A stretch of DNA of 64,000 nt from a virus: IMG/VR virus record IMGVR_UViG_3300045988_051354, positions 35,058 through 99,057 of that record. One strand, written 5' to 3'. The translations under genes and the position numbers were made by a program. Numbering within the stretch: the stretch's first letter is position 1; each line of letters starts with the position of its first letter. This document shows positions 1,189 to 62,407 of this stretch, piece by piece. The notes under the pieces were generated by a model. It had not been told where the DNA came from. It did not search any database and was given only the letters and a program-made list of their open reading frames with translations.

Positions 1189-1297
1189 ATAGTTCGCTAC
1201 ACTATATGCGTTCTCTTATGAACTGCTGTATGTCACCATACAGGTCAGACTATATCACAATCCTATTAGGATTCTCCCCATTTCCACTGTCAATAGC

Positions 1298-1873
1298 TTA
1301 CAGTGTACTCTCTTTCGAGATAGTCGTTGAACTTTCATTACAGAACTCAAATGTATATCCATGATACAACCTATTAGCATTGATAGCTTTATGTAACCCT
1401 TCCACACAAGATGGCTTACCTATAAGGCGTACTGCTTCACTCATAGATTTATATATAGTATCATTCTCTATACATCTGACTGCCTTTGGAGCAGTCTTCC
1501 CCTTCATAGACTTACCAAGTACATCTACAGAGTGTCTTTCATTCTCTGACTGTGTGCACCATTCTAGGTTCTCTACACAGTTATTAGAACGATTGCCATC
1601 TATATGATTAACGTAAGGTTTGTTGTCAGGATTTGGTATGTACGTCTCAGCTACAAGCCTATGACACATATATCTTTTCTTAACACCTTCTTTCATTAAC
1701 ACAATCCTACTGTAACCATCTTGCATAACCTCTACTTTAAGTGATTTGCCAGGATAATTACGAGTTCCAGATTGCTTATACTTGATAATTCTATCTTTAC
1801 TTCTAAAGTTACCTAAAGTACTTACTTCAAAGTACCCTTCATAGTTAGGGATTTCTTTCCAAATTTCTTCCAT
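1298..1873 (-). CDS. HNH homing endonuclease (NUMOD4-like N-terminus) inside the nrdD intervening sequence
   Basis: EIWKEIPNYEGYFEVSTLGNFRS is a NUMOD4-like motif. HIDGNRSNNCVENLEWCTQSEN is an HNH motif. The gene sits between two nrdD coding blocks. Confidence 0.8.
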   Translation of the reverse strand: MEEIWKEIPNYEGYFEVSTLGNFRSKDRIIKYKQSGTRNYPGKSLKVEVMQDGYSRIVLMKEGVKKRYMCHRLVAETYIPNPDNKPYVNHIDGNRSNNCVENLEWCTQSENERHSVDVLGKSMKGKTAPKAVRCIENDTIYKSMSEAVRLIGKPSCVEGLHKAINANRLYHGYTFEFCNESSTTISKESTL

Positions 1874-2014
1874 AATGCTTAGCTGCTGATTGTCTTAATA
1901 CTAATTATTAAGTGCAAAGATAATGTAATTTACTTACATTTCCTAACTTTCTACCATTAATTAATGTTAAGATGTCCCAGCAATTAGAGGAGTTGTTCGA
2001 GATAGATTACTCTA

Positions 2015-3064
2015 TCAAGCTGCGAAATTCACAGGGAACGTTAATATGCACTTAGTCCTCTCCTCGTTAAACCAAGTCATAAACTTCTTCTGTAACCAGT
2101 TCAAAGAATCCCATATGGGCTTAGTTCCATCTGGGAATACAAACTCACCAAATAAACCTTCAAAGTAATTCTTATCAAAATAACTGATATTCCAGAATAC
2201 TGATTGGAAGTTACGAGCAGCTGCTGGTTGATTGATTGAATATACAATCTGTTGGAACTTCTGTTCAATAGTCTTATCAATATTTCTATGTTTATCAACC
2301 ATCTCTTCTGGACGTTTCCAATAATCATCACCCCATTCTTTACGAGCGAAGTAATCGAAATACATTAGGAACTCACCAGTAGCTACTGCTCCAGCGAATT
2401 GTGAGCTGATAGCAAATACCAGATTAACAAACATACCGCAGAAGGAGTCCAGATTCTTAGGCTTGGCAGACAAACCTCCAATTGGCTGTAGCCCTTCAAG
2501 TAGGAACGGATACATAGTGATAGCCACGCAGTAGGGCATAATTGATGTTTCATCATGCTTGTAAAGTTCATGAGATTCCAGTTGTCTAATATACTCCTTA
2601 GCTAAATCTTCACCATATAACTGCCTAATTTTATCTGTAAGGATTGCTCTATTAACTTTAATTACATCACCCTTAAACAACTCTCCATTTAAAGTTACTA
2701 TATTCTTCTCAGTAACATTGGCATTAGCATCATATTTACTACCTGTAGCAGCATTAGATGCTTTGGCATAATCTTTAATAAACTGCTTCTTCCCAGCTAA
2801 TGCTCTGAGTTCAGCTTGTTTATGTCGATACAAAATGAATGCTTTAGCGACATCATAGTAATCACAAGCCATCAAAGCCTTTTCAATTTGATCTTGAAGC
2901 TCTTCTACTGATACTATGTTGTTAATATACAATTCATCTTTAATATCATCCAAAATATCGGAATCAATTGGTTCGTTAACAGCATTGAACGCCTTAGTAA
3001 TAGCCGCGTCAATCTTATTAATATCGAAAGGTTCTACTCTCTTATTTCTTTTAATTACTAACAT
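2015..3064 (-). CDS. nrdD: Anaerobic ribonucleotide reductase NrdD, N-terminal exon (ATP-cone + start of catalytic domain)
   Basis: MLVIKRNKRVEPFDINKIDAAI is ATP-cone-like. It ends ...KCILTFPVNFAA at a TGA and is then interrupted by 826 bp containing the HNH ORF. Confidence 0.7.
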   Translation of the reverse strand: MLVIKRNKRVEPFDINKIDAAITKAFNAVNEPIDSDILDDIKDELYINNIVSVEELQDQIEKALMACDYYDVAKAFILYRHKQAELRALAGKKQFIKDYAKASNAATGSKYDANANVTEKNIVTLNGELFKGDVIKVNRAILTDKIRQLYGEDLAKEYIRQLESHELYKHDETSIMPYCVAITMYPFLLEGLQPIGGLSAKPKNLDSFCGMFVNLVFAISSQFAGAVATGEFLMYFDYFARKEWGDDYWKRPEEMVDKHRNIDKTIEQKFQQIVYSINQPAAARNFQSVFWNISYFDKNYFEGLFGEFVFPDGTKPIWDSLNWLQKKFMTWFNEERTKCILTFPVNFAA

Positions 3065-3069: not shown

Positions 3070-3849
3070 TTAGAAGTTTAATATGTTTCTTAGTAATAGA
3101 GTCTTCTCTGCTCTATTCATCAAATCTTTGCCCTTGTCATTACTAATTAACTGAGTAAATGCATTATACACAGTAAACATATCCACCTCATTACCCTCTC
3201 CTATATAATAGCTAGAATCAGGGTCTTCAAACATAGAACCATAAGCCTTAACAACAAGGTCTGTTCCTATCTTTACGTCTCCATACCCACCATTATAGGT
3301 CATAGATATAGCGTTTCTAACCCATCTACCTAGATTAGAGTCTATATTACTTGGAGTTCCTTCCCATGTAGTATTATGTAAGGTGTCCAACATCAATTTA
3401 ATATCACTGGTTTGTGATAAAAGGTGTTCAACAGCTTTATAATTGATGGGCTTCTCAGACTCTAAGTTCTGAACTTGCAAGAACTCTGGGTCAAAGACAC
3501 ATAAGTTTGTACATGCTCTATTAAGAGCGCCTCTATAAATCTTAGCTACTGGTTTACGGACATCTAATCCATATACCATACCAATAACTTCATCGTGATT
3601 ATCTATTCTGCAATTCTCTGGCATTACAGCTTGAATAAGTACACGATTATAAGTGATATCATCTGCATTAACCTCTCCATCTGCTGTTCTAGTAACTTGC
3701 TTAGGGAGTTCTGCTTCCACTATAAAGTTACTAGTAAACTTATACATTCTTTCTAGAAAGGGTTCTACATAAGCAGCCGTAGGGAAGTAATTACGCTTCC
3801 CTATTCTGGTTGCTTTACCATTTAACAGTTGATCAATCGTCAGTTGCAT
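3070..3849 (-). CDS. hypothetical protein
   Basis: 259-aa ORF. Starts right after the nrdD exon. Fits the minus-strand gene array. Confidence 0.55.
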   Translation of the reverse strand: MQLTIDQLLNGKATRIGKRNYFPTAAYVEPFLERMYKFTSNFIVEAELPKQVTRTADGEVNADDITYNRVLIQAVMPENCRIDNHDEVIGMVYGLDVRKPVAKIYRGALNRACTNLCVFDPEFLQVQNLESEKPINYKAVEHLLSQTSDIKLMLDTLHNTTWEGTPSNIDSNLGRWVRNAISMTYNGGYGDVKIGTDLVVKAYGSMFEDPDSSYYIGEGNEVDMFTVYNAFTQLISNDKGKDLMNRAEKTLLLRNILNF

Positions 3850-4502
3850 TATACACAGTACAATATCGGCTTTGGTAATTCTAGTAATCTAGCAGCATAA
3901 TATACAGCTCTTAATGGATTTGCACCATTACCGTCAATAGGCATAGTGTTAGAACTAAAATAACCAACACCATACCTTTTGGCAATATTGTACAACCTCA
4001 CTAATAACTCAGTAGATTGGCCCTTTGTTGGATCAATTTCATTTGACAAGAGCTGATTTAGCAAATACTTCAGAGCTTCTCTGCAAGTAGCTCTGGTATC
4101 ATCACCATTAAATGTATGATTGTCTATCATAATTGTTCGCACAGTAACTCCACAAAATGCCTTCTCAGCATACTTTACCTCACCATTCTCCATTTCAATA
4201 GGAGTTCCTATTAATCCCTGCACAGGATGAACAGGCTTCTCTACATCTCTATCATTAATGGTTATCTTACCGGAATTTAGTTGCTTTGAGGCTTTAGAAA
4301 TCATACTATCTTTAACAATAGTAGGAAGATCATCTATGTTAGTTTGGCCAGTTACTCTGAATCCAACAGCTGGTAAATTACTCATAAGATTATCCTCTGC
4401 TCGTCGAAAGTCTAGTTTACTTTGTTCTAACGCCTTAAAAGCATTTACATAGTCATCACAATTAGCTCTAAGAGCTATTACATCATCAATAGTTAAAGTC
4501 AT
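3849..4502 (-). CDS. hypothetical protein
   Basis: 217-aa ORF. Its ATG overlaps the stop of the next gene. Confidence 0.55.
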   Translation of the reverse strand: MTLTIDDVIALRANCDDYVNAFKALEQSKLDFRRAEDNLMSNLPAVGFRVTGQTNIDDLPTIVKDSMISKASKQLNSGKITINDRDVEKPVHPVQGLIGTPIEMENGEVKYAEKAFCGVTVRTIMIDNHTFNGDDTRATCREALKYLLNQLLSNEIDPTKGQSTELLVRLYNIAKRYGVGYFSSNTMPIDGNGANPLRAVYYAARLLELPKPILYCV

Positions 4503-6218: not shown

Positions 6219-6776
6219 TTATCCTTCAACCCCAAAGCAGATATATGTACCCATCTTAGCTGACTTAGACGGAGTGTACTTAACTTCAAAAGCACCATCC
6301 TCACCTTCAACTACTGCCTTAATATACTTGCAATATACGTCACCAGTGTAGTCTTTCTTAGTGTACAGCTCCTTAGCTACTTCTTTAGCCTTAGTCTTAG
6401 TCTCGAAATTGATAAACAGTACTTCACCAGTTGCAGGATTAATACCTTGATAACCAGTCTTATACTTTCTCTTACCCTTCTCATTCTTAATGTCAATCAT
6501 AGTGTACGGACGCTCGCGAGTGTCAGCAGAACCTGCCTCAAACGTAATGGAACATCCAACACCAGCAGCCATCTTAGTATGTTTAGTAAGATATTCAGCG
6601 CAGAATTCCTTCAATGCTTTGTCAGTGATGGGCTTACCAGCAGCTTTCCATGCCTGAGTAGCATCACGAATTACTTGGAATGGGGCTTGTGCAACTGCTT
6701 CTTGTTTAGTGTAACCTTTAACTTCTACTTTCTTAAAATTTACTTGATTAGTCATAATTAATTGAGTTTTAAACAT
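6219..6776 (-). CDS. hypothetical protein (two TAnnTTTG promoter motifs upstream)
   Basis: 185-aa ORF. Two copies of GTACCTTTG lie just upstream on the coding strand. Confidence 0.6.
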   Translation of the reverse strand: MFKTQLIMTNQVNFKKVEVKGYTKQEAVAQAPFQVIRDATQAWKAAGKPITDKALKEFCAEYLTKHTKMAAGVGCSITFEAGSADTRERPYTMIDIKNEKGKRKYKTGYQGINPATGEVLFINFETKTKAKEVAKELYTKKDYTGDVYCKYIKAVVEGEDGAFEVKYTPSKSAKMGTYICFGVEG

Positions 6777-6799
6777 TATTCCATTGAGTGTAATCTCTT

Positions 6800-6930
6800 T
6801 GTTATTGTATTACAAAGGTACTGCTTTAATATTGGATTACCAAGCAATACTGATGTAAAATAATCTTAATGTTGTATTCTCAATCTGACCTCTTCTTTCA
6901 GGGAGGATGCTGCAAAGGTACTACTTTATC
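6800..6930 (-). promoter_or_regulatory. two Bacteroidetes-type -7 promoter motifs (TAnnTTTG) upstream of gene 6219..6776
   Basis: Plus-strand caaaggtactgcttta and caaaggtactacttta read GTACCTTTG on the coding strand, an exact TAnnTTTG. Confidence 0.4.
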
Positions 6931-6975
6931 TCCAATTGGACAAGTAATGACTAATAAATAATACGATAAATTATT

Positions 6976-7197
6976 TTAACTATTATCATTAGGTGGAAAG
7001 CAAAATGTATTATTGCACATTCCACGCCATGTAGCTTCACTCTCTTCATAGAATTTATCTATTATGCCATTCTCATCATTAGCAATTATCCCAGTAGCCC
7101 ATAACAGTTGATTAAATCTCATGTCTGGATACTTGTCTATTAAATCGGATAGCTTACTAAGAATAGCTTTGTTGTTTACATATCTAGTGTTATTCAT
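6976..7197 (-). CDS. hypothetical small protein
   Basis: 73-aa ORF in the minus-strand array. Confidence 0.4.
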   Translation of the reverse strand: MNNTRYVNNKAILSKLSDLIDKYPDMRFNQLLWATGIIANDENGIIDKFYEESEATWRGMCNNTFCFPPNDNS

Positions 7198-25065: not shown

Positions 25066-27078
25066 TTAAAAGTTAACTTTAATGGTTCTTGTAAAGCTGC
25101 CAGTAACTTTACAGATAACACTATTGCGGATGGTAGATGAGAATCCTAAACCACTCAACTGATTATCAGAATAAGGAGCCTTCATCTTATTAGCTAACAT
25201 CTCAAACGTCTTACGATCCTGAGATAGTTCACTCCTAAGATATTCGTTAAAGAATCCTCTTACTGGAGATGGATTCTTGCACCCATCTAAGATAAAGAAA
25301 TAGTGTTTATTGCCTACTTCTGCACCGTTCCAATAATTTGGAGACAGAGTGAGTAACGATACCTTATGGAATTTGTTAGTAGACAAGTTCCACGTCTCTT
25401 TATCACTTGAATTACTCGGAAGGACATCATGTATGACAATTCCCTTGGCCTTAGAATACTCAAATCTGGCTACTGTCACTTTATCACGACCTCGAAGATC
25501 TGTTGTGTAGGTATACTCACGTACTTCTCCGTTACATTCAATTTCAACAGTAAATCCAACATCGTGATAATCTCTTTTGCAGAAATTGTGTACATATACG
25601 GTATACATACCTTCCATACGCGGTTCATCCTCCCAGATAACGTTCTCTACTGGTTTACGAGAATGTATACCACCAGCATTCATGTCAACATCTAGCACCC
25701 CACCAGAAGTTCCAGTTCTATGTGAATAATAGATTTCATTATCACGTGGTTGTATGATATGGATGTCTAAATCATCACCATTATACCATGCAAGAGAACA
25801 CCTTAGATATCCATTCACCTTACCTCCAGCAGCCTGCACCTTATCCTTAATAGAAGAATCTGCAAGGTCTCCATTGTATGTCCAAGCGAAATTGTTTGGC
25901 CATTTAAATAGATTCTTTGCATCTTTATTAGATGGAGCTGTTAGAGTCATAAGGTTGTTTATATGTCTACTTTCTAATAGAACTTCTATACTGGTAGCAT
26001 TGGGAACAACATCCTTAATAAAGTCCTCAATTGATATTTCAGCAACAGTACCTAATTTCTTAGGATTAACTGGAATATCTTCCGCTAAATCTTGGAATAC
26101 ACTATTCCCAAGCATTGACTTCTTAGCATTTCTATCAGCAAAGATTACATCATTAACTGTAATGTCAGTAATTTCTGCATGTCGCCTTGGAAGTGCATCC
26201 ATTAGCCCTAGTTCAATAACCCTAGCTTCAGCAGCTTGAATCATCTTCTTAGTAGCTATTGTCTTAGGTCTTTGATAATTAGCAGGAGCTACTATTCTCT
26301 CGTAAGCTCTTACACTTTCATCAAGTTCACGTCCATTGGAGATGTCTACAAGCAAAGTGCCTATAGCAGTATTCCTAATACGTCCTACATATCCAACTTT
26401 AGCAGATTCAACCCAGCAGAAATTATCACGTTCCTCACGGGGTACTACTTCATATTTCTTCTTAAGTGCAACAAATGCCTCTAGATCGGATTTGTACTGG
26501 TCTCCACGATACAAAGAACCTTGTGAAATCAAATCCAGAACAATGTCAAAAGCATCCATGGATAACTCATCCAAAGCTCGCTTCAATACTGTTTTATTGG
26601 TACGAAGTGCTCCTCTTACTGCTTCTTCAGAATCAGATACTGCACAAAGTAAATGATTAGGAAGCTTGTAAAATAAATGATTCCATGTATGTACGTGTCT
26701 CGTAGGAGTTTCTATCCACACATTGTTCTTATCTGTACCCAGTTTAACCACCTTACTAACAAATACGTCACATACTGGTTTAGATTTAACAAGTTGGGCT
26801 AAGTTTCTGGCTACTGTAGCATAAGGTTCATCTAACACTAAGGAATCCCAAATACTTACTAACTTGTTATTAACTATTGCAACTACATTGCCATAAGGTT
26901 TGATAAATTGACGACAGCAATTACATGTATGTGATTGTCTCTCGTCTTCTGGATAAGAATCTATGTAACAATCCCACAGCTCATCCTTATTAACATTAGT
27001 TAAATACAATCTATCAGCATTATTAGCTAAGGCATCAAATTGCTTATAAACTGCTCGTTTAAAATCAATAAATTCCAC
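25066..27078 (-). CDS. hypothetical large protein (670 aa)
   Basis: Long uninterrupted ORF. No family recognised by eye. Confidence 0.6.
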   Translation of the reverse strand: MEFIDFKRAVYKQFDALANNADRLYLTNVNKDELWDCYIDSYPEDERQSHTCNCCRQFIKPYGNVVAIVNNKLVSIWDSLVLDEPYATVARNLAQLVKSKPVCDVFVSKVVKLGTDKNNVWIETPTRHVHTWNHLFYKLPNHLLCAVSDSEEAVRGALRTNKTVLKRALDELSMDAFDIVLDLISQGSLYRGDQYKSDLEAFVALKKKYEVVPREERDNFCWVESAKVGYVGRIRNTAIGTLLVDISNGRELDESVRAYERIVAPANYQRPKTIATKKMIQAAEARVIELGLMDALPRRHAEITDITVNDVIFADRNAKKSMLGNSVFQDLAEDIPVNPKKLGTVAEISIEDFIKDVVPNATSIEVLLESRHINNLMTLTAPSNKDAKNLFKWPNNFAWTYNGDLADSSIKDKVQAAGGKVNGYLRCSLAWYNGDDLDIHIIQPRDNEIYYSHRTGTSGGVLDVDMNAGGIHSRKPVENVIWEDEPRMEGMYTVYVHNFCKRDYHDVGFTVEIECNGEVREYTYTTDLRGRDKVTVARFEYSKAKGIVIHDVLPSNSSDKETWNLSTNKFHKVSLLTLSPNYWNGAEVGNKHYFFILDGCKNPSPVRGFFNEYLRSELSQDRKTFEMLANKMKAPYSDNQLSGLGFSSTIRNSVICKVTGSFTRTIKVNF

Positions 27079-39622: not shown

Positions 39623-39910
39623 TTATGCCTTCCAGAAAGTGAATTCTGCATCACTTCCTCTTCCTACGTACTTTACTCCGAATCCATTGGCTCTATAAAT
39701 AGGTTCTACGTCTAACCAATGATTCTTAATAGCTTCTTCCTCTGTTATATTATCAGATGCTATATAGGCAATCACATCTGATTGTTTAAACGCGGAAGCC
39801 AGACCATTCCAATTCTTAACTATTAAAGTATTAAAAGCTAAGATAACCGCATCGGGTATAGACTTAAAGTCTCTACTCATCAATTCCCTTGAATTTAACA
39901 CTTTCACCAT
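39623..39910 (-). CDS. hypothetical protein
   Basis: 95 aa. Confidence 0.45.
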   Translation of the reverse strand: MVKVLNSRELMSRDFKSIPDAVILAFNTLIVKNWNGLASAFKQSDVIAYIASDNITEEEAIKNHWLDVEPIYRANGFGVKYVGRGSDAEFTFWKA

Positions 39911-39960
39911 AATTTTAGTAATTAGGTTAATAATAATTTCACAACTCTTATTAATCAGCG

Positions 39961-40013
39961 CGGAGGCAGCTGGATTCGAACCAGCGGAACCCTTTCAGAG
40001 CTCGGCACGTTAG
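39961..40013 (-). tRNA. split tRNA-Ser(GCU), 3' half (anticodon-loop 3' part, class-II variable arm, T-arm, acceptor 3')
   Basis: CTAA-CGTGC-C-GAGCTCTGAAAGGGTTC-C-GCTGG-TTCGAAT-CCAGC-TGCCTCC-G. Pairs with the 5' half at 40460..40494. Together with TTG from the 5' half it forms the loop TTGCTAA. Confidence 0.6.
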
Positions 40014-40021
40014 TGACAATA

Positions 40022-40038
40022 TTAGGAATCGAACCTAA
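40022..40038 (-). other. T-arm-like hairpin TTAGG-TTCGATT-CCTAA, 8 nt upstream of the tRNA-Ser(GCU) 3' half (shared insertion-end motif)
   Basis: Near-identical to 44749..44765 and structurally equivalent to 46655..46671. Overlaps the last codons of ORF 40022. Confidence 0.5.
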
Positions 40039-40447
40039 TATTATCTAAAACTGTATCATATAAATAGTCTTCATAATTTAATGGAGTGTTCTGATTAGTC
40101 TTCCTATATGGGATAGGGACATTGATACTCTTTCTGCCATTAATTATTTCAACTGGAACTAGTAACAGAATTTTAGATTCTATATTATATAAAGAGAAGT
40201 AATCAATTTCTGATTTATCATATACATGCACTCCAGTACTAGTAGATGATGTTAATCTCCATACAATAACGTTATCTTCAAATCTCTCTGAGGTTTTACA
40301 TTGTATCTTATTTAGTTTGCCATTGAATTCAGCTATCAAGTCAGCACGTTCATTCTCTCCGAATGAAGTATAGACTGGTATACCTCTCCTAACAAACTCG
40401 GCTATCGTAATAGCCTCTCCAATGTTTCCAATTACTTTACTATTCAT
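40022..40447 (-). CDS. small PD-(D/E)xK-like nuclease inside the insertion that splits tRNA-Ser(GCU)
   Basis: SKVIGNIGEAITIAEFVRRGIPV...ERADLIAEF...KIQCK is the same pattern as ORFs 9454 and 46740. Start moved to the internal ATG because the tracked GTG start overlaps the tRNA 5' half. Confidence 0.5.
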   Translation of the reverse strand: MNSKVIGNIGEAITIAEFVRRGIPVYTSFGENERADLIAEFNGKLNKIQCKTSERFEDNVIVWRLTSSTSTGVHVYDKSEIDYFSLYNIESKILLLVPVEIINGRKSINVPIPYRKTNQNTPLNYEDYLYDTVLDNIRFDS

Positions 40448-40459
40448 ACATACATTATG

Positions 40460-40494
40460 CAATGTGCTGGTATAGACCACTCACCCATACCTCC
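40460..40494 (-). tRNA. split tRNA-Ser(GCU), 5' half (acceptor, D-arm, anticodon stem 5' strand)
   Basis: GGAGGTA-TG-GGTG-AGTGGTCTA-TACC-A-GCACA-TTG. Its acceptor pairs perfectly with TGCCTCC 480 nt away, allowing G-U. Canonical T8, A14, G18G19 and A21. Confidence 0.6.
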
Positions 40495-40558
40495 AATTAC
40501 AGAAGACCTTGCTGTATCATTATTAATGCTGTTCGTCTTCTTAAGCTGTAAAAGATTG

Positions 40559-42547
40559 TTACTTCACAGCTTCAAAGTTGTCTTCGGTTGGATTATCCTT
40601 TTTATCCTCGACAAACATTTCTTTAAATGTCTTCTTAAAAGGAATACTCTTAAGAAGTTCAAATGCTGGGTTGAGATTCTCAGCTGTTTTAGCCATGAAA
40701 CTACCAGCAGTATTTTCATTACCATAAACAGTCACTTGTCCAAGATGGATATGTTCATACATCTCTGCGGATGCTTCAGCAATACCTTTAAGCTGATCCA
40801 CTGTCTTGTATTGAACAATCATTTGTGGAGTCATACCACATTCAATCATCTTCTCTACTGCCTTTGCAGGAGCCATTTCAACAGCAGTAATCTTGTCTGC
40901 TTCTGCCATCAAAGATGCTCTCTTACCTTCAGCCTCTGCAAGCAACTTTCTCTTAGTACCTTCAGCTTCAGCTTCAAGTTGCATCTGAGTTGCATTTGCC
41001 TTAGCTTCTGCCTCCTTAAGAATTTCAGCAGCTTTAGCTTCTGCCTTAAGAATAGCTTCTTGCTTTACAGCTTCAGCATCAATAATGGCTTTCTCCTTAG
41101 CTTTATTAGCAGGCACAATTACCGTTGCATTTAATTCAGCTTCTTTAGCTTTGGCTTCAGCTTCTTTAATTTCTGCAATCTTCTCTTGCTCGGTTCTAGC
41201 AATAGTAGTTTCTGCATCCACTTTAGAAATACCTGCAACCTTATCGGCATCAGCAGCAGCCTTTGCAGCTTCTCCTTTAGCCTTAGACACTTCAATTGTA
41301 GCCATATGCTCGGCTACTCCAGCCTGCTTATTAGCTTCAGCTGTCTTCTTACGAGCTTCAGACTCATATTCAGCAGTCCTAGCCTCCTTCTCTTGAACAG
41401 CTTTAATTGTCTCAGCCTCCTGATTCTGTTGAGCAGCAGCAATACGAATTTGCTTAGCTGATTCAGCTTCTTGTTCTTTAGCAGCTGCTTCCGCTTTAGA
41501 TTTAGCCATATTAGCTTTAGCTTGTGCATCCCATTCAGTCTGTTGAGAAATTGCAATAGACTCCTGCTCTGCTACCTTAGAAAGCTTCTCAGCGTTAGCT
41601 TTAGCTACTCCTACTTCCTGCTCTTTCTGTTGATCTGCAATAGCAATACGTTGTTCCTTCTGCTGCTCTGACAGTTTAACTTCCTGCTCCTTAGTAGTTT
41701 CGGCTAATCTAATTGCTTTATCCTTATTAGTTTCAGCAATAGTAGTCTCTTGGTCCTTAAGAGTAATAGCAATGGCTACTTTCTGGTCTCTAGTCGTTTC
41801 AGCTACTTTAGTCTCCCTTTCCTTAGTAGTAAGGGCAATTTGAATTGCTCCTTTCTTCTCTTCTTCAGCAATAGCAGCTTCTGCCTGTGCTCTAGCCTTA
41901 GTAGTTTCTTTCTGACCTAGATTCTCAATATAATTAGCAGCATCTCTGATGTCACTAATATTGATATTAATCAGATACAAACCCAATTTGTTTAATTCAG
42001 TGTTAATATTGTCTCTGGCTTGAGTTAAGAACTTATCTCTGTTAGAATTAAGTTCCTCAATTTCCATAGAAGCTACAATAAGCCTCATTTGGCCATATAC
42101 GATGTCTGAAATTAAACTCTCTTTATCTGTATCATCAACTCCAAGTAATCTATTAGCAGCATTCTGCATAATTAATGGGTCTTGGCTGATTGCTACAGTG
42201 ACTGTAGTAGGAACAGTAACACGAATATTCTGGGCTGATAATGCATCCTTGAGAGTTAAATTCAACTGAATAGGACGCATTGACATTACTTCATATCCCT
42301 GAATGATAGGCCATACAAATGCAGCTCCACCGTGATACACTCTAGCAGTTTTAATTTCTACTTCCCTGCTGACTTGGTTCCCTTTGGCATCAAGTTCATT
42401 TACCTTCTCTTTGTGAGAACCAGTTTTACCATAAACTACTAATAGTTCATCAGATTTACATTTACGATAACGAGATAAAATCCCAATGATAGTAATAATT
42501 GCTATTAATACAATTACTCCTACGATAATTAATGTTGTCATTTCCAT
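40559..42547 (-). CDS. Flotillin-like SPFH/band-7 protein
   Basis: N-terminal TM helix, then an SPFH core (ARVYHGGAAFVWPIIQGYEVMSMRPIQLNL...IRVTVPTTVTVAI). A flotillin-like Ala/Glu-rich coiled-coil region of about 350 aa follows. Confidence 0.7.
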   Translation of the reverse strand: MEMTTLIIVGVIVLIAIITIIGILSRYRKCKSDELLVVYGKTGSHKEKVNELDAKGNQVSREVEIKTARVYHGGAAFVWPIIQGYEVMSMRPIQLNLTLKDALSAQNIRVTVPTTVTVAISQDPLIMQNAANRLLGVDDTDKESLISDIVYGQMRLIVASMEIEELNSNRDKFLTQARDNINTELNKLGLYLININISDIRDAANYIENLGQKETTKARAQAEAAIAEEEKKGAIQIALTTKERETKVAETTRDQKVAIAITLKDQETTIAETNKDKAIRLAETTKEQEVKLSEQQKEQRIAIADQQKEQEVGVAKANAEKLSKVAEQESIAISQQTEWDAQAKANMAKSKAEAAAKEQEAESAKQIRIAAAQQNQEAETIKAVQEKEARTAEYESEARKKTAEANKQAGVAEHMATIEVSKAKGEAAKAAADADKVAGISKVDAETTIARTEQEKIAEIKEAEAKAKEAELNATVIVPANKAKEKAIIDAEAVKQEAILKAEAKAAEILKEAEAKANATQMQLEAEAEGTKRKLLAEAEGKRASLMAEADKITAVEMAPAKAVEKMIECGMTPQMIVQYKTVDQLKGIAEASAEMYEHIHLGQVTVYGNENTAGSFMAKTAENLNPAFELLKSIPFKKTFKEMFVEDKKDNPTEDNFEAVK

Positions 42548-44702: not shown

Positions 44703-44740
44703 TACCCCGACTGCGATTCGAACGCAGATATGTGGCTTAG
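44703..44740 (-). tRNA. split tRNA-Arg(UCU), 3' half
   Basis: CTAA-GCCAC-ATAT-CTGCG-TTCGAAT-CGCAG-TCGGGGT-A. Confidence 0.65.
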
Positions 44741-44748
44741 TATAAGAA

Positions 44749-44765
44749 CTAGGAGTCGAACCTAA
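44749..44765 (-). other. T-arm-like hairpin TTAGG-TTCGACT-CCTAG, 8 nt upstream of the tRNA-Arg(UCU) 3' half (shared insertion-end motif)
   Basis: See 40022..40038. Overlaps the stop codon of the HNH ORF. Confidence 0.5.
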
Positions 44766-45370
44766 TTCTTATTGTTATTAATTTCATTTTTATGGTAACG
44801 GTAATAGGAACGTTCTCCACACTTGTTCTTAGACTTATAAGTATCAAGCTGTGAATCACAGTTAGGACATATGCATCGTAAATTATCTCTACGATTGTTA
44901 GATGCATGTCCGTCTATATGGTCAATGATAAAGACCAGCTCTTTACCATTCCAGATAGGCTTCATACCACATATAGCACATACTCCACCTTGCTCTTTTA
45001 GAATATCTTTCTTGAAGGCCTTAGGAGAGTAGTTAGCTCTCATTATACTTTCATCACCGTCCAAAAGCTTCTTGTAAGCAAGCATATGAGCATGTTCAAA
45101 TTGACATTTAGGACCACAGTACTTGCCATAACTTCCGTTATAACTAATAAGTTCTGCACCACAGTTTAAACAGTATTTGTACTTCCTATTGAATGTTTCT
45201 TTAGGATTAATTTTACGTTTAATTGGTAACTCTATGCCAAGTCTACGCGCTACATTCTTAATATTAGCACCTGAACAACCATATCTTCTTCCTATTTCCT
45301 CATAACTGAGCTTATCTATCAAAATTAAATGCTCAAGTTGAGCTTTCTCGTTAATCCATTTACTTGTCAT
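44762..45370 (-). CDS. HNH homing endonuclease with N-terminal HTH, inside the insertion that splits tRNA-Arg(UCU)
   Basis: HTH LSYEEIGRRYGCSGANIKNVARRLGI. HNH motif VCAICG...FIIDHIDGHASNNRRDNLRCICPNCDSQ. Confidence 0.75.
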   Translation of the reverse strand: MTSKWINEKAQLEHLILIDKLSYEEIGRRYGCSGANIKNVARRLGIELPIKRKINPKETFNRKYKYCLNCGAELISYNGSYGKYCGPKCQFEHAHMLAYKKLLDGDESIMRANYSPKAFKKDILKEQGGVCAICGMKPIWNGKELVFIIDHIDGHASNNRRDNLRCICPNCDSQLDTYKSKNKCGERSYYRYHKNEINNNKN

Positions 45371-45486
45371 ATTCGTCTAAATTAGAAATTCGTACCTCAA
45401 AGATACGAATCTTTTACGAATTAAACAAGTAAATGGATGTTTTGTTGAAATTAATAACAGTGAGTTACGGACTCACCAGCCGTATG

Positions 45487-45520
45487 AAGGCCACTGTTCT
45501 ATCCCTTGAACTATCGAGGC
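45487..45520 (-). tRNA. split tRNA-Arg(UCU), 5' half
   Basis: GCCTCGA-TA-GTTC-AAGGGATA-GAAC-A-GTGGC-CTT. The D-arm is perfect. The acceptor pairs with TCGGGGT, and anticodon stem GTGGC pairs with GCCAC in the 3' half 746 nt away. The reconstituted loop is CTTCTAA. Confidence 0.65.
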
Positions 45521-46567: not shown

Positions 46568-46592
46568 AATCTTTCATTAATAAATTAATAAG

Positions 46593-46646
46593 AGGAAGGA
46601 CAGGGATTCGAACCCTGGGATCGCTGTTACACGACCAACAGTTTTG
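46593..46646 (-). tRNA. orphan tRNA 3' half (stem, class-II variable arm, T-arm, acceptor 3') directly after tRNA-Ser(UGA)
   Basis: CAAAA-CTGTT-GGTCGTGTAACAGCGATCC-CAGGG-TTCGAAT-CCCTG-TCCTTCC-T. No 5' half lies within 100 nt. A possible 5' partner is at 47143..47200. Confidence 0.45.
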
Positions 46647-46738
46647 AGGAAGCAGTGGGACTCCAACCCACACATCACTGTTACATGATTACTGGTGCTT
46701 TTCAAGAGCACTGCCTTAGCAATTAGGCTTATACTTCC
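46647..46738 (-). tRNA. tRNA-Ser(UGA), class II (non-canonical T-loop TTGGAGT)
   Basis: GGAAGTA-TA-AGCC..GGC-A-GTGCT-CTTGAAA-AGCAC-[23-nt variable arm]-GTGGG-TTGGAGT-CCCAC-TGCTTCC-T. Confidence 0.6.
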
Positions 46739-46739
46739 A

Positions 46740-47132
46740 TTACAATGAAACTTTATATTTGTCCCATTTATCCGTAAGAGTTAGAGTACTTTTAACTGTA
46801 ATCTCACTTGAAGGAATCTCGTACATATCGCCATTGACTACTACAATAAATAATATATCACATGTAGAATTATCAAAGTGTCTAATCTTTGATTGTCCAG
46901 AGGAGCCTCCACAATTCTTTAATAGAACTTCATAGTTGCCACTCTTTGATAGGTATTGAGTAGTTTTAACAGAAACTCTCTTCAGCCCATCTCTATCTAT
47001 TGCTATATCATATTTTTGAGTATCATTTAAAGGAATCAGGACAGGAATACAATTAGTTGTATAATAAGCTATAGCTCTACCCAGCCCTAAATTGCCTTGA
47101 TGTGATTTGTAGTCGCTTTCCCAAGCGTTCAT
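46740..47132 (-). CDS. small PD-(D/E)xK-like nuclease (third paralogue) immediately upstream of tRNA-Ser(UGA)
   Basis: LGLGRAIAYYTTNCIPVLIPL...YDIAIDRDGLKRVSVK is the same pattern as ORFs 9454 and 40022. Confidence 0.5.
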   Translation of the reverse strand: MNAWESDYKSHQGNLGLGRAIAYYTTNCIPVLIPLNDTQKYDIAIDRDGLKRVSVKTTQYLSKSGNYEVLLKNCGGSSGQSKIRHFDNSTCDILFIVVVNGDMYEIPSSEITVKSTLTLTDKWDKYKVSL

Positions 47133-47142
47133 TTACATAACA

Positions 47143-47200
47143 TTAAAAATTTCTAACTGTTTATCTAACCGTTGCATTAAGCCAACTCTGCCACCCTTCC
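47143..47200 (-). tRNA. tRNA 5'-fragment-like element (Ser-like acceptor + 3-bp D-stem, long D-loop + anticodon-arm-like hairpin)
   Basis: GGAAGGG-TG-GCA-GAGTTGGCTTAA-TGC-A-ACGGT-TAGATAA-ACAGT resembles a tRNA-Ser 5' portion. The acceptor is complementary to TCCTTCC of the orphan 3' half at 46593. Confidence 0.3.
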
Positions 47201-48822: not shown

Positions 48823-49473
48823 CTATTGTGCATACTCCCATCTATATCCGTATGCTGTCTTAGTCTTGTGCTTAGCTGCATTAGAGATATGGCTTCTAAC
48901 ACCTCCGTTATATGTCTTAGCATAACCATTATCAACACACCAATGTGCTGCGTCAGCCACGCTATTAAACACTTGCACAAGTATATCTTCGTTGTACTGT
49001 TCTATCTTTACTGGAGGTTTACAGGAGCCACAATGTGACTCGCTATTACTGTGGGATCTCTTGATATCCTTCACTACTTTGGACACTGTATCTGGATGAC
49101 ATCCTACTATTTTAGCAGTCTCTTTCATCGAATGTCTAGCAGCGTAGAGCTCACGAATTTCATCATAGTTCCAAATAATAGAACCATCTCCACCGGTAGT
49201 GGCATTATAACCATTACCATAGGTTTTAAATTCATTTATCCAGTAAGTTTCTCTTCCGCTAGATTCCTTTGACGAGCACTCTTCTAGCATTTCTATGCTA
49301 AATGAATCAATTCCATATTTATTCATGGCTCTATACAAAGGTCTATCTTTGCATCTCTCCTTCTTATAATCTCTACAGTGTTCTTTCCATCTCTTACTAA
49401 CGGACGAAGTAGTTTTACCTATATACTTCTTTCCATTTACATGGTTAGTTATGCAGTAAATATAAGACATCAA
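48823..49473 (-). CDS. GIY-YIG homing endonuclease (I-TevI/Seg-like)
   Basis: YIYCITNHVNGKKYIGKT (GIY and YIG), conserved R/E/N, and a C-terminal DNA-binding region. Flanked by a 15-nt direct repeat of a tRNA 3' end. Confidence 0.8.
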   Translation of the reverse strand: MMSYIYCITNHVNGKKYIGKTTSSVSKRWKEHCRDYKKERCKDRPLYRAMNKYGIDSFSIEMLEECSSKESSGRETYWINEFKTYGNGYNATTGGDGSIIWNYDEIRELYAARHSMKETAKIVGCHPDTVSKVVKDIKRSHSNSESHCGSCKPPVKIEQYNEDILVQVFNSVADAAHWCVDNGYAKTYNGGVRSHISNAAKHKTKTAYGYRWEYAQ

Positions 49474-49612: not shown

Positions 49613-49615
49613 AAG

Positions 49616-49687
49616 TGCTCCATACAGGATTCAAACCTGTGACACGTAGGTTTAGGGTCTACTGTTCTATCGCTGAACTAATGGAGC
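49616..49687 (-). tRNA. candidate suppressor tRNA, anticodon CUA (reads UAG), with C33 and an A31-C39 mismatch
   Basis: GCTCCAT-TA-GTTC-AGCGATA-GAAC-A-GTAGA-CCCTAAA-CCTAC-GTGTC-ACAGG-TTTGAAT-CCTGT-ATGGAGC-A. The acceptor, D-arm and T-arm are perfect. The anticodon triplet CUA sits at 34-36 of a 7-nt loop. Confidence 0.5.
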
Positions 49688-51403: not shown

Positions 51404-51651
51404 AAATCACACAATCCATATTAACTGATGAATTGTGAGTGCAAAGATAAGTAATCCTTCTCACATATAAAAGTTAATATGTATTAAATACAACATGGGG
51501 AAATTTAATTGGATATAGACTTACTATCTTCACAGACTGTAAGCCTTTATGACCATTTCCAATAGTTGCTGTTTTAAGTAGTAATGGCAATGACACAGAT
51601 GCAACTATCGGAAATTCTTTATGAGTAATTTAAAACTACAGTAATAATAGT

Positions 51652-51719
51652 CAGCTAGGTGGGATTCGAACCCACACCACTTACAAATTATGTAAGTCTT
51701 CTAACTTAAATTACTAGCC
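51652..51719 (-). tRNA. degenerate tRNA-like element (no D-arm; odd anticodon hairpin CTTAC-ATAATTT-GTAAG)
   Basis: Acceptor GGCTAG(T)/CTAGCTG is imperfect. T-arm GTGGG-TTCGAAT-CCCAC is perfect. Probably a pseudogene or a non-canonical tRNA. Confidence 0.3.
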
Positions 51720-51828
51720 TTACCGCTCACAGGCATCATTCAAATAAATCCCATCTAATAGATTAGATATGTAATTAGACTGTCTTTGATTTGTAATGCA
51801 CTTCTAATTACATAAGGAATTTAATCTT

Positions 51829-53547
51829 CTAGCCTTGTTGAGTGGACACAGTGCGCTTATTATAAATTGGCTTCTCAGACTTTGCAGGCTTACTCTGCAC
51901 GCTTGCATTCTTTCTCGGTGTGTCCTTCTCTAACACCATCATATTCAAGAGTTCTTGATTCATCATGTAATCGAACAACTCTTTAGGCGTACTAGGATTC
52001 TGGAATCTCTTCTCTCCGGTTATAAATCCAGCAGTGGACTGACTTAATCCGTTAACAAAGAAACAGTTAGAAACATTGCGAATCAATTCAACTTTAGGCT
52101 TAGTCTGTTTAGAGGCTAAATGCCAAATAATTAATTTAAACTGTTTAACAAACTCTTTGCTAAATCCAGCTTTTAAGAGTTTAGATTTAAATTCAATGAA
52201 TTGTTCACTGGTGTTTCTTAAATGTCCCAATGCTCCGCTAATTACCAAACAGCCATTTGGAAATTCACCTTCCCGAATTCCTCCAGATTTAATAGATATA
52301 AGCATATCTGCAATCATAGACAGAGTTGGACTAGTTACTAAGGCTTCCTCAGTATCTGAAATCCACTTACTAGTAGGAGTTGTACCTTCCCACTTACGTA
52401 AATCACATCTATTGTTGGCAAATACACCATACATGCCAGAGAACGCTACAGGCATTAATTCGGAATGATACATAGCATAAGCCTTACCAACACTATAAGC
52501 AGAAGTTTCAGTAGCTTCTATCTCAGAATAAGCAGAATTACTAATGTCTCTAATTACTAATAGTGGTGATACTTTCTTTAGCTTAGCATTCTTCACGAAT
52601 GTATTAAAACTAACATCTATAGAAGAACCCATGAATTCTGGTACGAACTCTGCAATTTTATCAAGCCCAAATGGCTTAAATAAATTATGCACAAATCCGT
52701 CATTACAGGGCTTTCTACGAGTCTTCAGCCATCTCTGATACTTCTCTGCAAGACCTTGTTGTTTGAGGAATTTAGAGCCTACTAGCAGTGCTAGAGCCTT
52801 TCCTGGAACTGTATCAAAGTCAATGTCGAGTAATTTCTTATGGCTTATTAATTGCTGCCATTTCATAACTGTACCGCTGTTCTTCATCTTTCTATACTTA
52901 CGATAAGATGAATAGTCTCCTTCCTCTTTCGGTTTACCATAAAGGCCTTCAGCTAGATATTTAGCAACTATGTTACGGGCTTTCGCCTCGTCTGTCTTAC
53001 ATATAGTATTAGCTCGAACTCTAGGAAGATACTTCTTTACTAAGTCACATGTTTGCCCTTCTACTAAACCAGCATAAATAGTCTTTCTAAAGAAATCCCA
53101 ATCTAGTCTATGCTTGTATCCATGTAATTGAGCATCCATTACTAACATATTAATAAAGTCCTTCCAGCATCCTGCTGCCGCAAAGTAAGGCATATTGGCA
53201 TGGAATGTAGATTTATGATATGTTGCCAACCACATCATTCTTAATAAACCTTCATTCTTTAGACCACCTCCTCGCTGTGTGTCTAAGTAAATAACTCCAT
53301 TAGGAGTAACTACTCTACATTTACGTGTAATAAGTCTTACATAGGCAGTAAATTTGACACACAGCTTTGGATTGGCCTTCCACAGTTCATACATATCTTG
53401 ACTAACGTCTTCATAAGAACGTGGTTCAAGATAGTGCGCAAGGTTTACGAATTGGTCCACAAATACTTTAGTAGGATTTGTATACCTTCGTCCCCCACCT
53501 TGAGAGGGCTTAGAGCAAGCCTTTTTAGGCCTTTCATTCATTTCCAT
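51829..53547 (-). CDS. hypothetical large protein (572 aa)
   Basis: Long ORF. No family recognised by eye. Confidence 0.6.
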   Translation of the reverse strand: MEMNERPKKACSKPSQGGGRRYTNPTKVFVDQFVNLAHYLEPRSYEDVSQDMYELWKANPKLCVKFTAYVRLITRKCRVVTPNGVIYLDTQRGGGLKNEGLLRMMWLATYHKSTFHANMPYFAAAGCWKDFINMLVMDAQLHGYKHRLDWDFFRKTIYAGLVEGQTCDLVKKYLPRVRANTICKTDEAKARNIVAKYLAEGLYGKPKEEGDYSSYRKYRKMKNSGTVMKWQQLISHKKLLDIDFDTVPGKALALLVGSKFLKQQGLAEKYQRWLKTRRKPCNDGFVHNLFKPFGLDKIAEFVPEFMGSSIDVSFNTFVKNAKLKKVSPLLVIRDISNSAYSEIEATETSAYSVGKAYAMYHSELMPVAFSGMYGVFANNRCDLRKWEGTTPTSKWISDTEEALVTSPTLSMIADMLISIKSGGIREGEFPNGCLVISGALGHLRNTSEQFIEFKSKLLKAGFSKEFVKQFKLIIWHLASKQTKPKVELIRNVSNCFFVNGLSQSTAGFITGEKRFQNPSTPKELFDYMMNQELLNMMVLEKDTPRKNASVQSKPAKSEKPIYNKRTVSTQQG

Positions 53548-53908
53548 CTTGTAAAATTAAATTAGCAGGTTAATCTGAGAGTTCTTTATTCTAATTGATA
53601 AAATGGGACACATAGACATTGAGCCAGCTTAATACAACTCGCTACTTACACACTACATGCCCCATATCAAATGAGGAAAGAGGTTCACTTGATGACCTAT
53701 CTACGTGCTGATTATAACGTAGACCGTGCAGATTCTCTCTCACACAATACTATGATGGACTCAAACCATCTCCACCCCTAGGTGAACTTTCCGTTATTCG
53801 AATAGTACAGGTTTCAACTCTTTATAACGCCTTTAAGTCAAAGTATACTCCGGAATATACTCTTAGTTCATCAGACCAAGTTTGCGCTTAGAATTATCTA
53901 AGATTAAG

Positions 53909-60912: not shown

Positions 60913-60987
60913 GTGAACCAGAGTAGATTCGAACTACTAACCTTTCTCTAGATGAGAATGTTCTTCCGGAAATTGAACTACTGGTTC
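60913..60987 (-). tRNA. tRNA-like element with non-canonical anticodon arm
   Basis: GAACCAG-TA-GTTC-[11-nt loop]-GAAC-A-TTCTC-ATCTA-GAGAA-AGGTT-AGTAG-TTCGAAT-CTACT-CTGGTTC-A. The acceptor, D-arm and T-arm are perfect. The anticodon arm is 5 bp with a 5-nt loop, or 4 bp with a 7-nt loop CATCTAG. Confidence 0.4.
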
Positions 60988-62407
60988 TAGCCCAAGCCTA
61001 TTTCACAACAAACTTGGGTTAAAGTAAATAACAACTTTATATATTATGATACACTTATTTGCATTTTACACCTAAAACTTAGAATCTTGCATGCAACTGC
61101 AATCTATTACATTTGTCTGACAAGGACAAACAACTAAGAAACTGGTGCCCTCAATGTCTTGGGATGTTATTGAGTTTTTTAAAAGTCCTTATAATCCTCT
61201 CTTTTAAGATAACTTAGAACTTTAGGTCTAGACTTGTACTTCGTCTATCCAAGTTTGTACTGTGCGAATACTTCGGATTATAGAGTGTATAGCACAATCC
61301 TCTAAAGTTTAGAGTATACACAATCTTTTGGGACTTTGTTATACTATTCTTGCCCAGGGAGTAGCGTAAACCGTCATATTAAACCGACATGTATCAATCC
61401 ACGGCCCCTTGATACTGGATCTACATTATTAGTAACGAATATAGTGCCTGTCTTTCCAGGCTGTCACCAAACTTATAAATCGGAATTGGTTTCCTGTACG
61501 GTTTATCCTTAAACTTTTAAGTGCGTTACTAGTAAACCGCCTAAAAGATACAGCACTACTGGTTTAAACTACCCTACCAGCAAGTAAAGCTCGTCTTTCC
61601 GAGCCGCCATGCTATCCCTTGTGTCACAGTACTCGCAACATACCATAACAGAACGTTCCTTTAGCCGATTACCCACACACCCCTACGTACAATGGTGGAA
61701 CGCAGCTTTCGCTACGATTAACAACTCTAGCTTTCTTCCCCTTCTTGGTTCTCCGTCATTACGGTTTGTATTATTGAAAGCGTGGAGGAATGGTCCTCAC
61801 ATTACTACTTAAAGCAATGTGGTTTTACCATTATTTACTCACAAATACATTTTCTTTGTGAGTCTATCATAGCTCTTGTACGCATTACTCGGCAGAGGAG
61901 CCTTACCGAAACCTACAATGTAGGACGCTGTTTAAAACTTAAAAATTAATATAATTAAAACAATCATGTGGACTCCTGCTTTAACGCATGAAGCAGGAAC
62001 GTTTAACTTTTGGCACTACATACATTATGTCCGTTTTGTGATGTAGGGATTCTAAGTATTTGCAACTACTCAGAAGAGCTAAACCAGGTTGCCTATCCTT
62101 TACAGCGATAGGCGTTCTGTTTATTTATAACTGCATCCAACAATTACCATGCCAAGCAAATTCTGCATCACCGATTCTCATTCTCCACTCAGAACCATCA
62201 TCAGTATAGAATTCATATTGTCTTCTGAAAGCTTCTTCACTTGAAATTGTTGTTGTATGTCCGTCTGACCAAATTATCTTATCCATAATTGTATATGTAA
62301 CTAACCTTTACGTTACGAGGTTTTAAATTGTTAATCAGACTCCTGCATATAGCAGAAGTTTCGTCCAGTCTCATCAGTGATTATTTTATAGACTCCTGGT
62401 TGTCTTA

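Follow-up and report, generated by a model that had tools for sequence, protein, structure and literature searches.

The tRNA-Ser(GCU) gene of a phage represented by IMG/VR virus record IMGVR_UViG_3300045988_051354 is split in its anticodon loop by a 446-nucleotide (nt) insert that carries a homing endonuclease gene and ends in a structural mimic of a tRNA 3' end; the stretch analyzed here, referred to below as the window, comprises 64,000 nt (positions 35,058 to 99,057 of that record). The insert is base-precise and mobile, its site is empty in related phages, its endonuclease belongs to a recognizable family, it is not a group I intron, and its covarying tRNA-end mimic directly abuts exon 2. 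It belongs with the mobile introns of the class found in Lak megaphages, here with a homing endonuclease on board, and there is about an even chance that it is removed by splicing through mimicry of tRNA processing. The first-pass annotation had recognized the split gene and the nuclease and had offered no mechanism of removal; the minihelix at the 3' end of this insert and of a sister insert in a tRNA-Arg(UCU) gene, the closing stem, and the connection with previously described introns of Lak phages go beyond it.

All genes of the window lie on the minus strand, to which the coordinates of the split genes and of their parts refer. When introns are allowed, ARAGORN reports tRNA-Ser(gct) at c[39960,40494], its anticodon loop interrupted by 446 nt, and both halves of this class II tRNA read as in the first-pass annotation. 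Exon 1 (40459..40494, from the intron-mode call) supplies the 5' strand of the acceptor stem, the D arm, the 5' strand of the anticodon stem and the loop residues U32, U33, G34 and, in one register, C35; exon 2 (39961..40012) supplies U36, A37 and A38, the 3' strand of the anticodon stem, the long variable arm, the T arm, the 3' strand of the acceptor stem and the discriminator G. The junction is ambiguous by a single C, with the boundaries falling either as TTG|C...A|CTAA (34/35) or as TTGC|A...AC|TAA (35/36), so that the C at 40459 is either the end of exon 1 or the first base of the insert, which spans 40013..40458 in the 35|36 register and 40014-40459 in the equivalent 34|35 register. If the two bases that precede exon 2 are read as the terminus of a tRNA gene (see below), the junction would be 35|36: exon 1 ...UUGC | AUAAUG ... 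GUC-A-C | UAA... exon 2. The predicted joined junction is ...ACATTGCTAACGTGCC..., or GGTGAGTGGTCTATACCAGCACATTGCTAACGTGCCGAGCTCTGAAAGGG with the single-nucleotide polymorphisms (SNPs) unique to the interrupted allele. The open reading frame (ORF) occupies 40022..40447, with an ATG start at 40447 and 141 codons plus the stop making up 426 nt, which leaves about 12 nt of non-coding sequence at the 5' end of the insert and about 9 nt at its 3' end. Even these short ends carry structure: a tRNA-like minihelix with its tail takes up the final 33 nt of the insert and overlaps the end of the ORF, whose TAA stop sits within the 3' strand of the T stem of the minihelix. Sub-threshold Rfam matches to the Plastid-psbI-rps4 3' untranslated region family in the window (39961-40013, plus strand) and in the related contig L004 (7035-7139, minus strand) correspond to the reverse complement of the 3' half of tRNA-Ser(GCU).

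An exact search for the T arm and acceptor 3' end of the gene retrieved 41 viral contigs, mostly from gut phages of 100-190 kb, and in 36 of these tRNA-Ser(GCU) is uninterrupted. The allele of two contigs, L013 and L031, matches the joined halves at 87 of 89 nt, including an odd A31.C39 mismatch, and the presence/absence comparison with this near-identical empty allele therefore defines the 446 nt as a base-precise insertion. Exon 1 differs from the empty allele by one D-loop base and is otherwise identical to it; the SNPs proper to the interrupted allele lie in the D loop (GAGTGG) and the variable loop (CTCTGAAAGG), and the locus keeps every nucleotide of the empty allele. The concern that the complementary acceptor halves might be a chance match is laid to rest by this comparison. 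The same insert, with a 99% identical ORF, occupies the same site in L025 and L043 within a different tRNA-Ser allele, which has the anticodon stem GCGCU/GGCGU and a different variable arm; consequently, the element is mobile. Copies of the Ser insert are 97-100% identical, with the exception of one 63% relative, and a search of phage DNA in GenBank returned one 5.7-kb fragment only.

The tRNA-Arg(UCU) gene of the window (44703..45520; ARAGORN with introns allowed, tRNA-Arg(tct), c[44702,45520]) is interrupted at the matching loop position by a 746-nt insert of the same class, in which an ORF at 44762-45370 encodes an HNH endonuclease; the architecture is thus the same and the endonuclease family different, as the first-pass annotation held, and the junction predicted for the Arg allele after joining is ...GTGGCCTTCTAAGCCAC.... 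The insert contains 5' hairpins (45459-45484), a closing stem (45448-45458 with 44774-44784), a minihelix (44742-44772; AUAAGAA-UUAGG-UUCGACU-CCUAG-UUCUUAU, then A-C|UAA) and an A-C tail (44740-44741). An ORF-less derivative of the Arg(UCU) intron, only 101 nt long, was found in two contigs from different samples (L043 342-515 / L166, and L039 at approximately 3819-3990 on the minus strand); the L043 interval represents a 174-nt pre-tRNA-Arg including the 101-nt intron. This short form keeps exactly the 5' hairpins, the 11-bp closing stem and the minihelix. In L039, one T is missing from the T loop of exon 2, which may be a sequencing error or decay.

The product of the Ser ORF is, by its profile match, an I-Ssp6803I-family PD-(D/E)xK homing endonuclease: it matches PF11645 (PDDEXK_5) with 75.2 bits against a gathering threshold of 26.1 (E=6.8e-21) over profile positions 1-131 of 138, which bears out the PD-(D/E)xK-like nuclease of the first-pass annotation. 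The phmmer match to I-Ssp6803I itself (PDB 2OST_A) is weak (E=0.055), with ADL/YDL and QCK/QVK in register; the catalytic residues of 2OST are D...QxK. For the PD-(D/E)xK enzyme, 462 homologues were found at E<=1e-8, the majority located in phage tRNA arrays, and for the HNH enzyme of the Arg insert 1,715 at E<=1e-10; the distant relatives of both are free-standing genes wedged between intact tRNAs. When the two endonucleases were used as search handles, diverged inserts were gathered. Three sets of Arg(UCU) inserts (L213-215, L216/217/L187 and L231-234) encode HNH proteins 84, 75 and 72% identical, respectively, in different exon alleles, and a Lys(UUU) insert in L218/219 encodes one that is 68% identical. 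A Ser(GCU) insert in L226/L227 has an ORF that is 63% identical and is read with UAG as a sense codon: in-frame TAG codons of the endonuclease (L226 92-502, and L227) stand where the window protein has Gln, and translation would therefore depend on the CUA suppressor tRNA of the phage. In the two Lys(UUU) genes (L218 1049-1881 and L219 938-1769), the insert is about 754 nt long and its terminal hairpin has the loop UUAAUUU, not a T loop; in L219, the anticodon-stem halves are mismatched (ACAGC vs ACUAU), which suggests that this copy is recombinant or in decay. Two endonuclease families that are unrelated to each other, PDDEXK_5 and HNH, thus share one RNA frame.

One shared part of this frame is its 3' end. 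Both window inserts end in a hairpin of 7 bp plus 5 bp with a canonical T loop, that is, in the acceptor/T-arm minihelix of a tRNA; in the Ser insert it lies at 40015..40045 (GAUAAUA-UUAGG-UUCGAUU-CCUAA-UAUUGUC, with a 7-bp acceptor-like stem, a 5-bp T stem and the T loop). Across nine distinct Ser/Arg inserts, namely the Ser and Arg inserts of the window and seven diverged ones, all 108 helix cells hold standard pairs, two-sided compensatory changes are found at 8 of the 12 pairs, and the T loop is invariant at UUCGA. Alignments slid out of register pair at only 42-53%, and none of 500 shuffles reaches the observed values. The alignment includes a single bulge column, represented by an N placeholder: two inserts have one bulged base, at precisely the point from which the rest of a genuine tRNA would branch off the helix. 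When the window and all fetched loci were scanned, hairpins of this type were confined to these inserts, the lone exception (L091) being chance-like and having an off-consensus loop. Judged from aligned sequences, the minihelix is thereby shown to have been kept by compensatory changes across inserts of different tRNAs and endonucleases.

The minihelix is always followed by N, C and then exon 2, both in all nine distinct diverged inserts and in four published Lak introns discussed below; in the Ser insert this tail is A-C (40013..40014) and mimics N73-C74. The ordinary tRNA genes of the window have the same ending: 25 of 25 end in N73-C74 followed by something other than CA, on a strand of which C makes up 15%, none encodes CCA, and among the tRNA genes of relatives (L001-L044) 397 of 404 end in N73-C74 without CA. 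Because the minihelix and N-C match all 25 window tRNA genes, the 3' end of the Ser insert is a faithful copy of the phage's tRNA-gene 3' terminus. Such uniform N73-C74 ends imply an unusual 3'-maturation rule in these phages, in which C74 would be encoded and C75-A76 added.

A second shared element is a long-range closing stem that loops out the ORF. In the Ser insert, 11 bp are predicted between 40449-40439 and 40068-40058; the 5' strand (GUAUGAAUAGU, 40439..40449) holds the AUG of the ORF, the 3' strand (ACUAUUUAUAU, 40058..40068) lies within the C-terminal coding region, and the stem is present in the RNAfold minimum free energy structure of the whole precursor. At the equivalent position, L226 and all of the Arg/Lys inserts have stems of unrelated sequence. 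Taken singly, the stems exceed AT-rich shuffles only modestly (p 0.003-0.3), and their constant position is a stronger argument than the p values of single stems. The 5' ends are less uniform. The Arg/Lys inserts start with (C/U)AUACGG...CCGUA and a second, overlapping helix, for which there is no room in the Ser inserts; both helices, as read by hand and with moderate support, are kept by compensatory changes and may form a pseudoknot. RNAalifold, run on the 5' regions of the inserts, gave no consensus and did not recover the overlapping helices.

These features place the window inserts beside a group of elements that has been described before. Introns of 79-114 nt in the tRNAs of Lak megaphages were called 'enigmatic', gave 'no hit in rfam', and in one case hold a predicted tRNA (Devoto et al., 2019; PMC6784885); such introns were found to be common in alternative-code jumbo phages in a 2026 survey (PMC13037316). 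In text searches of the literature, no phage tRNA intron with an endonuclease or a minihelix was found to have been described. When the four published Lak introns (Table S6) were parsed, all four proved to have a 5-bp T stem, a TTCGnnn loop and a 7-nt strand paired 7/7 upstream, followed by N-C and exon 2; this rule was derived in the present analysis and is not stated in PMC6784885. Like the Lak introns, the window inserts interrupt the anticodon loop of phage tRNAs, are absent from close relatives, belong to no Rfam family, and contain a tRNA-like element that closes with the same helix, N, C and exon 2. The 5' end of the Lak introns, (A/U)UAC with a small hairpin, recurs in the Arg/Lys inserts (ATACGG...CCGTA), whereas the Ser inserts share (C)AUA only and have no hairpin before the ORF. 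Other differences are plain: the Lak introns are ORF-less, whereas here a homing-endonuclease gene lies upstream of the minihelix; in their tRNA-like part, which is in one case a whole tRNA, 18-49 nt separate the acceptor strand from the T stem, whereas here the minihelix is contiguous; and in three Lak cases the site is 36|37 rather than 35|36. By their structural features, the Ser and Arg elements of the window are members of the Lak-type class of phage tRNA introns. The same rule bears on the published 'tRNA-Tyr(GTA)' of Lak A1/A2 (PMC6784885, Table S6): if helix+N+C sets the 3' junction, the exons would join as CUGU|UAA, the anticodon would be GUU (Asn) with a short variable arm, rather than Tyr(GUA), and the intron would start with the consensus AUACAGG.

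Parallels to the endonuclease side are found elsewhere. The tRNA-fMet intron of Synechocystis PCC 6803, which houses I-Ssp6803I (PDB 2OST), likewise carries a PF11645 endonuclease inside an anticodon-loop intron, and in both cases the endonuclease is expected to target the empty allele at its palindromic anticodon stem-loop; the Synechocystis intron is a group I ribozyme that splices itself, whereas the Ser insert fails every group I test. T4 SegB and the T5 F-Tfl enzymes are free-standing homing endonucleases in phage tRNA regions that target the tRNA genes of related phages. The endonucleases of the window resemble them in residing in a tRNA array, and the distant homologues of both ORFs are exactly such genes; unlike SegB and F-Tfl, which are encoded beside tRNA genes, the Ser and Arg ORFs lie inside them.

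Removal of the insert could follow from what its 3' end resembles. The acceptor stem and T arm constitute the minimal substrate of both RNase P and RNase Z, the latter of which cleaves after N73; the Ser insert presents a 7+5-bp T-loop helix and N-C where a tRNA 3' end would be, and thus a predicted cut site. We know of no other tRNA-end signal that defines a splice site inside another tRNA. In the proposed pathway, the 3' splice site would be cut, after A (40014) or after C (40013), by whatever enzyme matures the 3' ends of the phage tRNAs; a cut of the RNase Z type would leave a 5'-phosphate on exon 2, exactly at its first base. A second cut at nt 34/35 would free exon 1, and an RNA ligase would reseal the anticodon loop, yielding a tRNA that reads AGY codons. 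At the DNA level, the endonuclease would cut empty tRNA-Ser alleles of co-infecting phages, into which the intron would then be copied. Exon 1 ends in N34-C35 followed by A/U, and the strand before it, which comprises the 3' side of the D stem, nt 26, the 5' side of the anticodon stem and nt 32-33, amounts to 12 stacked nt. Speculatively, this strand resembles the T-stem plus acceptor 3' strand, so that one RNase Z-like enzyme might make both cuts, generating the 3'-OH and 5'-phosphate needed by an Rnl-type ligase. In a broader and more tentative reading, which we hold possible at somewhat worse than even odds, these introns would represent a third route of tRNA splicing, besides group I and bulge-helix-bulge (BHB) introns, in which the intron ends in a tRNA-3' mimic, the end-maturation machinery cuts and an RNA ligase closes, endonucleases of unrelated families having colonized the RNA frame.

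Several observations weigh against splicing by tRNA-end mimicry. The rejoining of the halves is a prediction from the DNA sequence. No mechanism was arrived at for the 5' cut: of the options considered (RNase P, BHB, known ribozymes, alternative pairing of the acceptor, trimming by an exonuclease), none fits every insert, and the Ser insert has no structure beside the 5' junction, where only CAUA is shared. RNA ligase, RtcB, polynucleotide kinase and RNase Z are all missing from the approximately 57 ORFs of the window, which covers about one third of the genome, when searched with Pfam, PHROGs and NCBIfam. The intact halves could reflect recent homing, given the 97-100% identity of the Ser copies. 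Three relatives, L004, L011 and L235, tolerate the loss of tRNA-Ser(GCU), and the anticodon-stem mismatch of L219 and the 1-nt T-loop deletion of L039 mar two of the interrupted genes.

Individual candidates for the missing steps were set aside as follows. The first bases of the insert, AUAAUG, pair 6/7 with the 3' strand of the minihelix, and this alternative acceptor stem would turn the whole insert into one giant tRNA-like substrate of RNase P and RNase Z; the pairing is lost in L226 (4/7) and in the Arg inserts. RNase P is a poor candidate for the cut at the 5' junction, the closest downstream helix being at least 2 nt away in the Arg inserts and 4-8 nt away in the Ser inserts. A 5' mechanism in which an exonuclease trims back to a C 'stop' does not work for the Arg insert, where position +4 is also a C. 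A 670-aa protein encoded at 25066-27078 (minus strand), inside the tRNA array, was considered as the RNA ligase, a name given under the match in one GenBank record, and discarded: the annotation of that record does not fit the sequence. This protein of unknown function belongs to phrog_1735 (E=8e-253), finds no match in Pfam, NCBIfam or PDB, shares 47% identity with Klebsiella Vequintavirinae phage proteins, and is represented by homologues in 555 phage records of GenBank.

The strongest rival, which we regard as unlikely though far from negligible, is a dead gene: on this view, insertion of a selfish cassette with the endonuclease would have inactivated tRNA-Ser, the minihelix would serve only as tRNA punctuation that releases or stabilizes the endonuclease mRNA in the polycistronic transcript of the tRNA array, and the halves would never be rejoined. 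The near-identity of the Ser copies, by which the intact halves may simply be recent, the ligase-free set of window ORFs, the relatives that manage without this tRNA, and the defects in L219 and L039 all fit this rival, as do the distant, free-standing relatives of the endonucleases, whose mRNA ends are necessarily set by processing of the intact tRNAs around them. Clearly dead invaded tRNA genes also exist at the same loci. In these (L235, L004/L011 and window 46592-47200), the exon-1 fragment stops short of the anticodon loop, at about nt 31 or farther upstream, and there is no minihelix; in two of the three cases an internal tRNA or tRNA-like element stands in its place. The window example, also present in L033, is a replacement cassette (46592-47200, minus strand) that consists of a 5' fragment of an old tRNA-Ser(UGA) up to nt 31, a PDDEXK_5 ORF (46740-47132), a new tRNA-Ser(UGA), and the old 3' fragment from A36. 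The complete new tRNA-Ser(UGA) lies at 46646-46738 and ends in T-C, nt 32-35 of the old gene are replaced, and intact versions of the old gene are present in many relatives. In L004 (approximately 6530-7140) and L011, the tRNA-Ser(GCU) locus contains a different PDDEXK_5 cassette and, after it, an aberrant element resembling a tRNA, GGAGAGA...CTGCTAA...TTGGGTTCGAAACCCAACCTCTCC-G-C, which neither ARAGORN nor Rfam calls a tRNA, and the outer 5' half lacks nt 32-34.

The truncated 5' fragment and the missing minihelix that mark such cassettes are not found at the Ser(GCU) locus of the window. Inserts of the minihelix type are all base-precise, whereas those that lack it are truncated, and the spacing between the helix and the junction is fixed at N-C even though the ORFs have diverged to 63-72% identity. 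The ORF-less forms, that is, the 101-nt Arg derivative and the Lak introns, persist with no endonuclease mRNA to serve. A dead gene would also be costly, in that the phage would lose its sole tRNAs for heavily used codons: AGA makes up 54% of its Arg codons and AGY 34% of its Ser codons, and standard ARAGORN finds no other tRNA-Ser(GCU) or tRNA-Arg(UCU) gene in the array.

The possibility that the insert is a small ribozyme of a new kind, self-splicing or self-cleaving, in which the closing stem, the T-loop helix and the tRNA body would form a catalytic junction that excises the insert without proteins, is improbable. It would account for conserved, covarying structure at both insert ends and for the compensatory changes in the two overlapping 5' helices of the Arg form, which suggest a pseudoknot; T loops, common modules of tertiary contacts, are present, and the same genome has a RAGATH-1 hammerhead ribozyme and a RAGATH-34 RNA. 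Against this, the insert matches no known ribozyme family, the Ser inserts lack the 5' domain seen in Arg/Lys inserts, so that only the helix and the stem are universally shared, and outside the T loop there are no conserved unpaired nucleotides from which an active site could be built. Hammerhead, HDV-like, twister, hatchet and pistol ribozymes gave no Rfam match at E<=10, and a CUGGUGAG stretch of the Arg insert is not conserved.

An intron of the archaeal type, in which a BHB motif is cut by an EndA-like enzyme and RtcB joins the exons, is a very remote prospect. The PD-(D/E)xK and EndA folds are distantly related, and the Ser insert shares with archaeal BHB introns and split tRNAs the anticodon-loop location, the absence of a ribozyme and a presumed dependence on proteins. 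It differs from them in its host, a bacterial virus, and in its position, 34-36 rather than 37/38, and no BHB motif is present: the junctions lie opposite one another where the anticodon stem ends, and a 3-nt bulge/4-bp helix/3-nt bulge cannot be drawn by inspection. Furthermore, the ORF matches PF11645 and no tRNA-intron endonuclease family, none of the window ORFs scanned matched such a family either, the Arg insert encodes an HNH enzyme instead, and its mini-intron has no ORF.

A group I intron whose core overlaps the ORF, as in the Synechocystis intron that houses I-Ssp6803I, is effectively refuted, even though the endonuclease family is known from a group I tRNA intron and the phage has one such intron in nrdD: there is no Intron_gpI signal at E<=10 where this control is detected, the insert lacks a terminal G and exon 1 a final U, only about 12 nt at the 5' end and about 9 nt at the 3' end are non-coding, and the sister intron has a form of just 101 nt. 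The Ser insert has no Rfam match at the gathering threshold, nor at E<=10 when 39800-40650 is searched, and the Arg insert and its 101-nt form match neither Intron_gpI nor any other family at E<=10; in the positive control, the nrdD insert at 1226-1532 matches Intron_gpI with 29.2 bits (E=2.5e-5). The Intron_gpI covariance model represents the conserved P3-P9 core. By the group I rule, exon 1 should end in U, which forms the U.G pair of P1, and the intron in G, whereas exon 1 of the Ser gene ends in ...UUG or ...UUGC and the insert in ...GUCA or ...GUCAC. A group I core needs about 200 nt or more, and 426 of 446 nt are ORF, which upholds the first-pass view that a self-splicing core cannot fit. 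The nrdD gene itself (385-3064, minus strand) is split into an N-terminal part (2015-3064) and a C-terminal part (385-1188) by an insert with a NUMOD4/HNH_3 endonuclease ORF (1298-1873); this insert is a group I intron that falls below the Rfam gathering threshold, with a GAUAUAGUC signature and a terminal G.

The split genes lie within a large tRNA array. Standard ARAGORN finds 25 tRNA genes between 23209 and 60987, including two CUA amber suppressors (49615-49687 and 60913-60987, minus strand), and calls neither Ser(GCU) nor Arg(UCU). An additional tRNA at 51651-51720 (minus strand), reported by Rfam with 42.7 bits and not by ARAGORN, is of interest in that tRNA-Val is otherwise missing from the set. 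An endonuclease gene of a third type, GIY-YIG with a helix-turn-helix, lies between tRNA genes at 48823-49473 (minus strand). The RAGATH-1 hammerhead ribozyme is located at 62333-62406 (minus strand, 82.6 bits) and, together with the two CUA tRNAs, points to a stop-codon-recoding gut phage. The RAGATH-34 RNA (53804-53901, minus strand, 86.9 bits) precedes, by about 260 nt, an ORF of 572 aa (51829-53547) that matches PHROG 850, 'RNA-binding protein', and weakly DUF2828; the two may constitute an RNA-protein pair within the tRNA array.

Bacterial and phage tRNA introns are, in the textbook view, group I ribozymes. To our knowledge, the Lak megaphage introns, unexplained since 2019, are the only exceptions reported. 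The inserts described here give this class a defining rule, namely a covarying tRNA-end mimic that carries the N-C terminus of the phage's own tRNA genes, and proof of mobility in the form of two unrelated homing endonucleases, empty sites and an ORF-less derivative, along with a concrete proposal for the mechanism; what is new is the tRNA-3'-end mimic as the marker of the intron's 3' boundary and the presence of an endonuclease aboard a Lak-type intron. Such elements may be common in abundant human-gut phages: the HNH enzyme has more than 1,700 homologues in public metagenomes, yet the more distant ones sampled are free-standing, not intronic. Since standard tRNA finders miss interrupted genes, the tRNA complements of phages are under-counted; here, the tRNAs missed are those for AGY and for AGA, the codon that specifies more than half of the arginines of this phage.

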